A DNA stretch of 64,000 nt from an uncultured bacterium. Its GTDB lineage: Bacteria > Bacillota > Clostridia > Oscillospirales > Oscillospiraceae. The stretch is from assembly GCA_945873205.1 (NCBI GenBank), contig CAMCCC010000006.1:11414-75413 (forward strand), in the 5' to 3' direction. This document shows, piece after piece, positions 50,567-53,147 of this stretch. The notes beneath the pieces were generated by a model that was given only the letters and a program-made list of their open reading frames with translations, searched no databases and was not told the DNA's origin. The number at the start of each line of letters is the position of its first letter. Within the stretch, counting starts at the first letter, position 1. The position numbers were made by a program, and so were the translations under genes.

Positions 50567-51820
50567 ATGGCAGAAGATCGCGTTTATACCCAGGAAGAAC
50601 TGAAGGAGATGGCAGACCAGCTTCTGGCGGCAGACGGGCAGGAGCAGGCTGAAAAGCCCAAGGGCAAGCGCAAAGCCGCAAAGAAAAAGGAGGCCGAGGA
50701 AGTGCCCTCCAAGACCCCGGAGGAGCGGCTGAACGAGCTGCTGGAAAAGGGGAAAAAGGCCGGCAAGCTCACCGCCAGGGAGCTGGCGTGCATCGAGGAA
50801 CTGAACCTGGACAGCGAAGTGGTGGACAAGTTCTACGAGACGCTGGAAGCCAACGGCGTGGATATTGACATCGCCGCAGCCGACCTGCTGCCGCCCATCG
50901 ACGACGTGCTGCCGGAGGTGGAGGACCTGGCCGCCATTGAGGAGGTCACCCAGGAGGAGATCAATGACACCGACGCCCTGGTGGAGAGCTTCTCCACCGA
51001 CGACCCGGTGCGGATGTACCTGAAGGAGATCGGCAAGGTGCCGCTGCTGACCCCGGAGGAGGAGCTTGAGCTGGCCACCCGGATGTCCCAGGGGGACGAG
51101 GAGGCCAAACACCGCATGACCGAGGCAAACCTCCGTCTGGTGGTATCCATCGCCAAGCGCTATGTGGGCCGGGGGATGCTGTTTCTGGACCTGATTCAGG
51201 AGGGCAACCTGGGCCTCATCAAGGCGGTGGAGAAGTTTGACTACACCAAGGGCTACAAGTTCTCCACCTATGCCACCTGGTGGATCCGCCAGGCCATTAC
51301 CCGGGCCATTGCCGACCAGGCCCGCACCATCCGCATCCCGGTGCACATGGTGGAGACCATCAACAAGACCATCCGGGTCTCCCGCCAGCTTCTGCAGGAG
51401 CTGGGCCACGACCCCTCCGCCGAGGAGATCGCCAGGGAGATGGATATGCCGGTGGAAAAGGTGCGGGATATTCTGAAGATCGCCCAGGAGCCGGTATCGC
51501 TGGAGACGCCCATCGGCGAGGAGGAGGATTCCCACCTGGGAGACTTTATCCCTGATGAGGACGCTTCCGAGCCTTCCGAGGCCTCCAGCTTCTCCCTGCT
51601 GCGGGAGCAGCTGGAGGAGGTGCTGGACACCCTGGCCCCCCGGGAGAAGAAGGTGCTGGAGCTGCGCTTCGGCATTGTGGACGGCCGCACCCGCACCCTG
51701 GAGGAAGTGGGAAAGGAATTCAACGTCACCCGGGAGCGCATCCGCCAGATCGAGGCCAAGGCCCTGCGGAAGCTGCGTCACCCCAGCCGCTCCAAGAAGC
51801 TGCGGGATTTTCTCAACTAA
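50567..51820 (+). CDS. rpoD: RNA polymerase primary (group 1) sigma factor, copy 1
   Basis: ORF track 50552..51820, trimmed to ATG 50567 (GAGGGA RBS). Regions 1.2 to 4.2 are all present: [90 protein letters not shown]. Confidence 0.93.
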
Positions 51821-51896
51821 AACCGCAGGGCAGCAGCCCCTGTGATTAAATTACTCGTAATTTATGATAAATGATAAGGATATGGGAGATAGGACA

Positions 51897-53147
51897 ATGG
51901 CAGAAGAACATGTTTATACTGAAAAAGAGCTGAAAGAGATGGCGGATGCGCTTCTGAGAGAGGACGCCGCCCAGGCCGAGGCCGCCAAGCCCAAGCGCAA
52001 GGCAGGCAAAAAGAAGGAGGCTGAGGTGCCCAACCCCAAGACCCCGGAGGAGCGGCTCAATGAGCTGCTGGAAAAGGGCAAGAAGGCGGGCAAGCTCACC
52101 GCCAAGGAGCTGGAATGCATTGAGGAGCTGAACCTGGACAGCGAGGTGGAGGCCAAGTTCTACGAGACGCTGGAGGCCAACGGCGTGGACATTGACATCG
52201 CCGGGGCCGACCTGCTGCCCCCCATCGACGATGTGCTGCCGGAGGCAGAGGACCTGGCCGAGATCGAGGAGGTCACCGAGAAGGAGCTCAGCGAGACCGA
52301 AGCCCTGGCCGACGACTTCTTCACCGACGACCCGGTGCGGATGTACCTGAAGGAGATCGGCAAGGTGCCGCTGCTGACCCCGGAGGAGGAGATGGAGCTG
52401 GCGGTGCGGGTCTCCGCCGGGGACGAGGAGGCCAAGCGCCGCATGACCGAGGCCAACCTCCGTCTGGTGGTGTCCATCGCCCGGCGCTATGTGGGCCGGG
52501 GCATGGTGCTGCTGGACCTGATTCAGGAGGGCAACCTGGGCCTGATTAAGGCGGTGGAAAAATTTGACCACACCAAGGGCTACAAGTTCTCCACCTACGC
52601 CACCTGGTGGATTCGCCAGGCCATCACCCGCTCCATTGCCGACCAGGGCCGCACCATCCGTATCCCCGTACATATGGTGGAAACCATCAACAAGACCATC
52701 CGGGTCTCCCGCCAGCTTCTGCAGGAGCTGGGCCACGACCCCTCCGCCGAGGAGATCGCCAAGGAGATGGGGATGCCGGCGGAAAAGGTGCGGGATATCC
52801 TGCGCATCGCCCAGGAGCCGGTGTCCATGGAGACGCCCATCGGCGAGGAGGAGGATTCCCACCTGGGGGACTTTATCCCCGATGAGGACGCCTCCGAGCC
52901 CTCCGAGGTGGCCAGCTTCTCCCTGCTGCGGGAGCAGCTGGAGGAAGTGCTGGACACCCTGACCCCCAGAGAGAAGAAGGTGCTGGAGCTGCGCTTCGGC
53001 ATGGCCGACGGCCACAGCCGCACCCTGGAGGAAGTGGGCAAGGAGTTTAACGTCACCCGGGAACGCATCCGCCAGATCGAGGCCAAGGCCCTGCGGAAGC
53101 TTCGCCATCCCAGCCGCTCCAAGAAGCTGCGGGATTTCCTGAACTGA
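51897..53147 (+). CDS. rpoD: RNA polymerase primary-type (group 1-like) sigma factor, copy 2 (tandem paralogue)
   Basis: ORF track 51864..53147, trimmed to ATG 51897 (GGGAGATAGG RBS). It is colinear with copy 1 over its whole length and has an identical C-terminal 41 aa. Confidence 0.9.

Follow-up and report, generated by a model that had tools for sequence, protein, structure and literature searches.

What does it mean when a bacterium carries two intact genes for its primary sigma factor side by side, and how might such a pair have come about? Few bacterial proteins are as conserved as primary sigma factors, which are usually encoded in single copy. The question was raised by a 64 kb stretch of DNA (64,000 nt; 60.5% GC) from an uncultured member of the Oscillospiraceae (contig CAMCCC010000006.1, positions 11,414 to 75,413), referred to below as the window, in which two head-to-tail sigma genes of the sigA/rpoD type, here called copy 1 and copy 2, follow dgt and dnaG. 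An earlier note, made from the letters of the DNA alone, had drawn attention to the pair. The analysis reported here favors, with a reasonable degree of confidence, a real, lineage-specific tandem duplication of sigA/rpoD that ends a dgt-dnaG-sigA operon in a narrow clade of uncultured Oscillospiraceae, in which copy 1 would serve as the housekeeping sigma factor, and copy 2 as a second, primary-like one. To our knowledge, the origin of group-2 sigma factors from primary ones has been seen only in ancient, already diverged pairs. In a young duplication, the scar of the event can still be read, and so can the order of events, namely a burst of replacements in one copy and constraint thereafter.

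The tandem pair and its recurrence

Two plus-strand open reading frames (ORFs) were located 76 nt apart, with exactly the coordinates that the earlier note had given (Table 1); its description of the pair held up on every point of substance. The Pfam families for sigma regions 1.1, 1.2, 2, 3, and 4 each scored above their cutoffs in both copies, and both copies passed the curated Firmicutes RpoD equivalog model NF006666 (cutoff 572), with 600.5 bits for copy 1 and 577.4 bits for copy 2, in keeping with the claim that all conserved sigma regions are present in the two proteins. Pfam region 1.1 (cutoff 22.5) was scored at 30.0 bits in copy 1 and 23.7 bits in copy 2, and the RpoS and SigB models did not score copy 2 above copy 1. 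The best match of copy 1 among solved structures in the PDB was C. difficile SigA (7l7b_F, E=4e-154).

The two proteins share 359 of 416 aligned residues (86.3%), and differ by 57 substitutions and one 1-residue indel, which agrees with the ~55 substitutions and 85-90% identity estimated by eye. DNA identity is 87.5% (156 differences in 1248 nt), and the NG86 method gave a synonymous divergence (dS) of 0.349, a non-synonymous divergence (dN) of 0.081, and a dN/dS of 0.23 between the two copies of the window. The identical C-terminus that had been noted is real, and its length is 42 residues rather than 41. Identical DNA tracts of ~65-80 nt were likewise recovered, as perfect runs of 70 nt (gene nt 429-498, which contains the tract that had been quoted) and 79 nt (nt 790-868), along with five runs of 32-40 nt. 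The proportion of synonymous differences (pS) is 0.74 over codons 1-40, and drops to 0.05-0.15 in a number of windows farther inside the gene. Substitutions concentrate in the N-terminal tail and in the linker before region 1.2, and are fewer in regions 2 to 4.1. Thus, the clustering proposed earlier was upheld for the tail and the linker, and failed for folded region 1.1 (aa 51-110), where just 3 unique changes were counted in copy 1 and 2 in copy 2; the phrase “different region 1.1” was imprecise, this segment being nearly alike in both copies.

The pair is not peculiar to one assembly. Two independent ENA metagenome assemblies encode a protein identical to copy 2, and one of them, L081, holds both sigma genes and the same 76-nt spacer; a record of the exact copy 1 protein was not found in the assembly index. 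Altogether, 12 further contigs, each belonging to its own metagenome assembly, carry the tandem, which bears out the view that it is neither a fresh nor an artefactual duplicate. The order of dnaG, the 417-aa gene, the 416-aa gene, and an aminotransferase gene was seen in L081, L082 (partial), L087-L089, L091-L094, and L096; L082 and L095 end at contig ends, and L090 has the tandem with other downstream genes. At this last locus (L090:4001-9251), the 3′ half of copy 2 is very divergent, with 11-20 differences per 60 nt from its own copy 1 and 55 unique amino-acid changes, and the gene is followed by asparagine synthase and rpoB, instead of the aminotransferase gene and sigG. Such a structure may stem from a rearrangement, from a chimeric contig, or from recombination with a lineage farther away.

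Beyond the tandem clade, the arrangement is rare. Among 80 species-representative loci from GTDB genomes, the nearest of which were Oscillospiraceae with 71-81% protein identity, a second adjacent sigma-A-like gene was present in one (L076). Proteins of 418 aa that are 92% identical to copy 1 (P0117 and P0118, on contigs of up to 1.3 Mb) are encoded by single genes. The single-copy relatives L083-L086 show the same synteny of dgt, dnaG, rpoD, and aminotransferase gene, and the nearest species, L001-L005, also have one gene in this setting.

The region upstream of the genes retains a trace of the duplication. Homology between the sequences preceding the two genes was found to reach back ~24 nt from each ATG. 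In front of copy 2, this segment reads GATAAGGATATGGGAGATAGGACA, and it is a diverged duplicate of the end of dnaG, final codons and stop included, where the sequence is AAAAAGGATATGAGGGATAAGAGC. It hardly varies across 8 aligned tandem loci, and L093 and L096 share its ribosome-binding motif. The dnaG stop codon lies 4 nt before the start of copy 1, whose ribosome-binding site is embedded in the final ~24 nt of dnaG. The Shine-Dalgarno sequence of copy 2, GGGAG, located 8 nt 5′ of its ATG, is provided by the scar, and the proposal that copy 2 has a ribosome-binding site of its own was thus confirmed. These features indicate that the duplicated unit began ~24 nt inside the 3′ end of dnaG, and that copy 2 thereby inherited a ribosome-binding site embedded in dnaG.

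In a neighbor-joining (NJ) tree of 207 database protein relatives, the 417-aa and 416-aa types group together, and the single-copy types of 418/419 aa fall outside. Nucleotide NJ bootstrapping joined copy 1 and copy 2 to the exclusion of the single-copy lineage with 91% support at all sites and 94% at third positions, and monophyly of copy 2, a 416-aa family of ~69 clusters, was supported at 100%. The dS between the copies is 0.34-0.44 in unconverted genomes, and that of either copy to the single-copy lineage is 0.54-0.68 (0.80-0.82 for L090 copy 2). With dnaG used as a species clock, the distance to that lineage is a dS of 0.57-0.73, and the tandem clade spans a dnaG dS of up to 0.30, roughly a few closely related species; dnaG identity is 91.7-100% among tandem genomes, and 81-83% to the single-copy lineage. 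By these phylogenetic and distance measures, the duplication is shown to have arisen a single time, before the tandem clade radiated and around or after the point where the single-copy sister lineage branched off, with vertical descent thereafter.

Divergence, constraint, and gene conversion

Both copies are under strong purifying selection. Across tandem genomes, copy 2 orthologues showed a dN of 0.014-0.021 and a dS of 0.23-0.32 (dN/dS ~0.05-0.09), and copy 1 orthologues a dN/dS of ~0.08-0.13, indicating that neither copy is decaying, and substantiating the suggestion that both are selectively maintained. Copy 2 was also considered as a pseudogene or decaying gene, and this was ruled out by its intact domains and the orthologue ratio.

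Amino-acid divergence was found to be asymmetric. Fixed differences were counted in 119 copy-1-type, 69 copy-2-type, and 21 single-copy-type database proteins, a paralogue difference being taken as fixed when each of the two groups shows its own state at 80% or more. Of the 25 differences fixed in this sense, copy 2 has the derived state in 21 and copy 1 in 3, with 1 unclear. A Tajima relative-rate test on the copies of the window, with the single-copy gene as outgroup, gave 14 unique changes in copy 1 vs 36 in copy 2 (p=0.002). The excess falls in regions 1.2-4 (aa 146-417; 2 vs 20) and in the linker (2 vs 9); the N-terminal tail and region 1.1 together hold 10 in copy 1 and 7 in copy 2. Synonymous third positions, on the other hand, are symmetric (22 vs 27). 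On the stem leading to copy 2, 35 non-synonymous and 5 synonymous changes were counted under strict fixation, compared with 32 and 151 in its crown (Fisher p=4e-17). From these counts, we claim a marked elevation of the replacement rate of copy 2 at its origin relative to the crown, followed by strong constraint. Positive selection on the copy 2 stem was examined and set aside, as the omega of ~2 obtained under strict fixation dropped to ~0.3 at relaxed consensus.

Copy 1 has also changed in places. In the most abundant lineage (L088:2679-3932 and L089:2679-3932), it carries derived residues of its own in the N-terminal tail and region 1.1, among them K63R, E72D, E77G, L79M, and I102L; at these positions, the ancestral residue is still found in most outgroups, in the single-copy lineage, and in copy 2. 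Such a pattern is a hint that, in L088 and L089, the copies are diverging in a complementary way.

The location of the replacements in copy 2 was examined by aligning both copies to E. coli sigma70, with numbering anchored on full-length PDB chains. All 24 of the key positions checked have the same residue in copy 1, copy 2, and sigma70. These include the β′ clamp-helix contacts (L402, D403, Q406, E407, and N409), the melting aromatics (Y425, Y430, W433, and W434), the readers of −12 (Q437, T440, and R441), the extended −10 (H455 and E458), and −35 (R584, E585, R586, R588, and Q589) elements, as well as the activator-contact residues of region 4.2; their roles we take to be those established in the sigma70 literature. 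The proposal that the copies share the same promoter-reading surfaces was therefore sustained for every −10, extended −10, −35, melting, clamp-helix, and activator-contact equivalent checked. The differences lie elsewhere: in the lysine- and acid-rich N-terminal tail and in region 3; in the linker before region 1.2 (V118A, E130K, I132L, D134E, D136E, S141D, and S143F); in the connector between regions 1.2 and 2.1 (T171V, M173V, Q175A, and H182R); in regions 2.1-2.2 (K197R, L205V, and F206L); next to region 2.4 (A247S and A252G); and in the 4.1-4.2 turn, where GIVDGRTR of copy 1 is GMADGHSR in copy 2. The sites listed earlier outside region 1.1 (N-terminus, linker, and regions 2 and 4.1) were correct as far as they went, and the real spread covers the tail, the linker between regions 1.1 and 1.2, and regions 1.2-2.2, 3, and 4.1. 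Residue F206 is the equivalent of E. coli F401, beside the clamp-helix contact L402; every outgroup and the single-copy lineage have F there, and copy 2 has L. RpoS also has L at this position (ALLDLIEEGN). The pair makes visible which regions diverge first in a young sigma paralogue, namely the tail, the linker, regions 1.2-2.2, and region 4.1, and not the DNA-reading residues.

Gene conversion, which the earlier note had raised as a possibility, was demonstrated in two other tandem genomes and in mosaic proteins. The two copies of the window give modest evidence of it: their synonymous differences are unevenly spread over the gene (chi-square p=0.011), and the longest run of synonymous identity falls short of significance (p=0.08). 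In L091, the copies are identical over nt 241-420 and 721-1200, and in L092 over nt 241-840 (perfect tracts of 180-600 nt; permutation p=0.0002 in each); copy 1 has turned copy-2-like in the former, and copy 2 has turned copy-1-like in the latter. Since the dnaG genes of L091 and L092 are identical, these events must be recent, independent, and frequent on the timescale of strains. In database proteins, residues diagnostic of one paralogue give way to those of the other over contiguous blocks, and this is seen in either direction. As a rule, copy 1 has been the donor: its states are found at C-terminal sites in 17-30% of copy 2 clusters, and the reverse is mostly seen in 3-6% (13% at one site). 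In the N-terminal half, copy 2 states are kept in 84-100% of the ~69 copy 2 clusters, and in more than 90% at most sites. This pattern fits a situation in which selection holds the identity of copy 2 in the N-terminal half, and the 3′ half is more freely homogenized. A contest between gene conversion and selection appears to be still in progress at the tandem locus, and the more than 10 natural variants in public metagenomes, mosaics included, offer a ready domain-swap series for judging the importance of individual residues.

Transcription of copy 2 was considered from its surroundings. The spacer between the copies, which is 68-103 nt long in tandem relatives, is AT-rich and contains a hairpin lacking a U-tract, as had been described (Table 1). 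By folding, this hairpin has 7-8 bp in the window, 16 bp in L087, 5 bp in L088, and 7-8 bp in L091, and inverted-repeat sequence was read by eye, unfolded, at the same site in L093 and L096; its position is conserved, and its sequence is not. Relatives with one copy have a strong hairpin without a U-run after rpoD (14 bp in L083 and 11 bp in L084), and the aminotransferase gene comes next, the gap between the two genes being 68-76 nt (e.g., L083:7258-7325). The corresponding gap after copy 2 (53148-53184 in the window) is 30-38 nt in tandem genomes and has no hairpin; the segment 53145-53186 folds at −1.9 kcal/mol. The position of the ancestral hairpin is now filled only after copy 1, which indicates deletion or remodelling after the duplication. 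A consensus promoter scan of the spacer gave a single weak match, which overlaps the start codon of copy 2, and a consensus scan for plus-strand intrinsic terminators gave none. Across the 8 loci scanned, no −35/−10 pair was conserved in position upstream of copy 2, and no SigH-like motif (AGGA N17-22 GAAT) was present within 300 nt upstream of it. A search of the spacer against Rfam returned no RNA family. We infer from this layout that copy 1 may end a dgt-dnaG-sigA unit, and that transcripts reading through the hairpin, or starting at an unrecognized promoter, may account for the expression of copy 2. Copy 2 is probably co-transcribed with the downstream aminotransferase gene.

Competing readings of the pair

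In the reading favored here, a single duplication, of a unit that starts ~24 nt inside the dnaG 3′ end, was followed by vertical inheritance. Copy 1 remained nearly frozen in regions 1.2-4 and coupled to dnaG, which makes it the better candidate for the major vegetative sigma factor. Copy 2 passed through a burst of ~27 amino-acid replacements, none of them at the −10, extended −10, or −35 readers checked, and has been under strong purifying selection since. Recurrent conversion, mostly of copy 2 by copy 1 and mostly in the 3′ half, keeps neutral sites similar, while the N-terminal residues of copy 2 persist. Copy 1 would be the housekeeping sigma-A, and copy 2 a nascent group-2-type sigma with full group-1 architecture, and the pair may record how a second primary-like sigma factor begins to form. 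As for what copy 2 does, the chances seem evenly balanced that it acts on the same promoters with a different expression or regulation, core affinity, open-complex kinetics, or sensitivity to regulators, thus giving rise to holoenzyme variants. It is a tentative and more doubtful suggestion that the copy 2 holoenzyme is functionally distinct at the same promoters through altered core affinity, open-complex kinetics, or sensitivity to sigma-A-binding regulators or phage inhibitors, in which case ~20 residues would be selected against conversion, and copy 2 would be an intermediate between group-1 and group-2 factors.

Several observations weigh against this reading. At relaxed consensus, the copy 2 stem holds 27 non-synonymous to 26 synonymous codons (omega ~0.3); as omega depends on the criterion used, and conversion can preferentially erase neutral differences between paralogues, positive selection is not proven. 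In the L088/L089 lineage, the asymmetry is not significant (21 vs 31, p=0.17), and copy 1 has gained changes in region 1.1 as well. Retention of N-terminal copy 2 residues could owe something to a mechanical contribution from the lower DNA identity at the 5′ end. The functional weight given to the F401-equivalent residue is presumed from E. coli genetics. The spacer has no conserved promoter of the SigA or SigH type and no canonical terminator in the scans described above, which leaves differential transcription a conjecture. Finally, the 5′ third of the gene supports neither topology (34% vs 41% bootstrap), and so leaves room for an older duplication that was partly homogenized by conversion.

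The main rival is that the pair provides dosage or redundancy only, the two proteins being interchangeable housekeeping sigma factors, and the copy-2-specific residues being nearly neutral and not yet erased. The identity of the promoter-reading and core-contact residues, the passing of the RpoD equivalog cutoff by both copies, the lack of a detected separate promoter for copy 2, and the frequency of conversion, which means that the sequences are still exchangeable and that mosaics are tolerated in nature, all speak for it. We nevertheless consider it unlikely, since N-terminal copy 2 residues have been held in 84-100% of clusters despite conversion, the amino-acid changes, unlike the synonymous ones, are shared out very unequally between the copies, the copy 2 stem has an excess of replacements when set against the crown (p=4e-17), and copy 2 has altered a phenylalanine that is otherwise invariant in all outgroups and the single-copy lineage. 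Another history would place the duplication before the sister split, with the loss of one copy in the single-copy lineage and concerted evolution lowering the divergence between the remaining two. Over the first 120 nt, the copies differ from each other at 39 sites, and from the single-copy lineage at 36 and 38; the 5′ third gives no support to their grouping; and conversion is demonstrably active. This history is nonetheless rather improbable, as the sampled distant relatives (L001-L005 and 74 others) are single-copy and would call for at least one extra loss, third positions of the whole gene support copy 1 with copy 2 at 94%, and copy-2-diagnostic states are absent from the single-copy genes.

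Acquisition of copy 2 from a related species, with insertion beside the resident gene, was judged to be very improbable. Although the copy 2 protein is farther than copy 1 from all outgroups, and the L090 locus, with its divergent 3′ half and different downstream genes, indicates that foreign recombination can occur here, by synonymous distance, no other lineage is as near to copy 2 as copy 1 is, synonymous sites show equal relative rates, GC and GC3 match, and the 24 nt upstream of copy 2 come from the dnaG end of its own lineage. It is hardly credible that two strain haplotypes were joined in tandem, or a repeat collapsed or expanded, during assembly. Near-identical repeats can be mis-joined in metagenome assemblies, but the same order was obtained in the 12 other contigs, from separate assemblies with more than one contig-naming style (k141_..., ...-scaffold_...), copy 2 forms an orthologous clade of its own (100% bootstrap) with a fixed 1-codon indel, and the conserved spacer bears the dnaG-tail scar, a mark of genuine tandem duplication by which mis-assembly is effectively excluded. 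For annotation, this means that adjacent “RpoD” calls in metagenome-assembled genomes of the Oscillospiraceae are real.

Known systems and the surrounding locus

The closest precedent is found in C. difficile, another member of the Clostridia, in which two group-1-type sigma-A factors are present, SigA1 (CD1455), encoded in the dnaG operon, and the more diverged SigA2 (CD1498). In that organism, sigA1 is associated with exponential growth, and sigA2 has a SigH-dependent promoter and is associated with stationary phase (PMC7438776); sigA2 was not significantly expressed in vegetative growth (bioRxiv 10.1101/2021.06.06.447298). The premise that bacteria have a single group-1 sigma is therefore not universal, given this pair (PMC7438776) and the wide occurrence of group-2 sigmas. 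The C. difficile genes are unlinked (~43 loci apart) and far more diverged, whereas those described here are adjacent, 86% identical, and exchanging sequence, and the mapped SigH-dependent promoter of sigA2 is without a SigH-type counterpart upstream of copy 2 of the window. Since the nearest relatives of the tandem clade are single-copy, the duplications in C. difficile and the Oscillospiraceae were evidently independent.

Group-2 sigma factors, such as E. coli RpoS, actinobacterial SigB and HrdA-D, and cyanobacterial SigB-E, are primary-like and non-essential. They are ancient paralogues that typically share 50-65% of their residues with the primary sigma, and region 1.1 is usually absent or truncated. 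Like them, copy 2 keeps the recognition residues of primary-type promoters beside a more conserved primary copy; unlike them, it retains region 1.1 and scores above the RpoD equivalog cutoff. Mycobacterial sigA has sigB a few kb downstream of it, an arrangement for which our literature search returned no supporting paper. The one species-level locus with a second gene, L076 (Clostridiales bacterium UBA8949; L076:411-4459), has dnaG, a sigA with region 1.1, and an adjacent second sigma-A-like gene on the same strand, which encodes 337 aa, is ~52% identical to copy 1 of the window, and is without region 1.1. This pair is an older event that occurred independently within the Clostridia, and resembles an end state that copy 2 may approach.

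The macromolecular-synthesis operon consists of rpsU-dnaG-rpoD in E. coli, and of dnaG-sigA in Bacillus and Clostridium. The placement of sigA right after dnaG has been reported in C. beijerinckii (PMC6362236) and C. difficile (PMC7438776). Copy 1 occupies this classic place, and the classic operon, in contrast to the present one, closes with one sigma gene. With regard to conversion, a comparison can be made to the tuf genes. The tufA and tufB genes of Salmonella are duplicated essential genes under concerted evolution, and are nearly identical in protein. As in that pair, the sigma copies are kept similar by recurrent conversion; unlike in that pair, a defined set of copy-2-specific residues resists homogenization. 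Literature searches on rpoD genes in tandem or in duplicate, and on gene conversion between sigma paralogues, returned nothing comparable. Primary-like sigma paralogues are a known kind, of which this adjacent, highly similar, converting pair is a rare case.

The features of the locus are collected in Table 1. The sole further sigma gene in the 64 kb window is sigG, two genes downstream of the tandem pair. Its presence suggests that the source organism is probably a spore-former, which makes a growth-phase- or sporulation-specific use of copy 2 plausible.

Table 1. Features of the tandem sigma locus, in positions of the window
Feature	Position	Strand	Basis and remarks
dgt, HD-domain dGTPase-like gene	47785..48798	+	ORF; opens the dgt-dnaG-sigA cluster; L083-L096 orthologues with PF01966 HD and PF13286 HD_assoc
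dnaG, DNA primase, 580 aa	48820..50562	+	ORF; orthologues with Zn_ribbon_DnaG, Toprim, and DnaB_bind Pfam families
Copy 1 (sigA1/rpoD), primary sigma factor, 417 aa	50567..51820	+	ORF, NF006666, Pfam regions 1.1-4
Intergenic spacer between the copies, 76 nt, AT-rich (41% GC)	51821..51896	+	
GC-rich hairpin directly 3′ of the copy 1 stop codon, 7-8 bp, without U-tract	51824..51844	+	Folding
Duplication scar, dnaG 3′-end remnant, 24 nt	51873..51896	+	Upstream-region alignment
Copy 2 (sigA2-like), diverging primary-like sigma factor, 416 aa	51897..53147	+	ORF, NF006666, Pfam regions 1.1-4
Class I/II aminotransferase gene, 37 nt past copy 2	53185..54381	+	PF00155 in orthologues
sigG, sporulation sigma factor	54420..55217	-	NF006071 SigG equivalog, 408.3 bits vs cutoff 372

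Two RNA elements were also recognized further downstream in the window. A ribosomal protein L10 leader (55370-55499, 64.8 bits) is located upstream of rplJ/rplL, and a ZMP/ZTP riboswitch (56643-56728, 44.2 bits) precedes a purE-like (AIRC) gene at 56734-57282.

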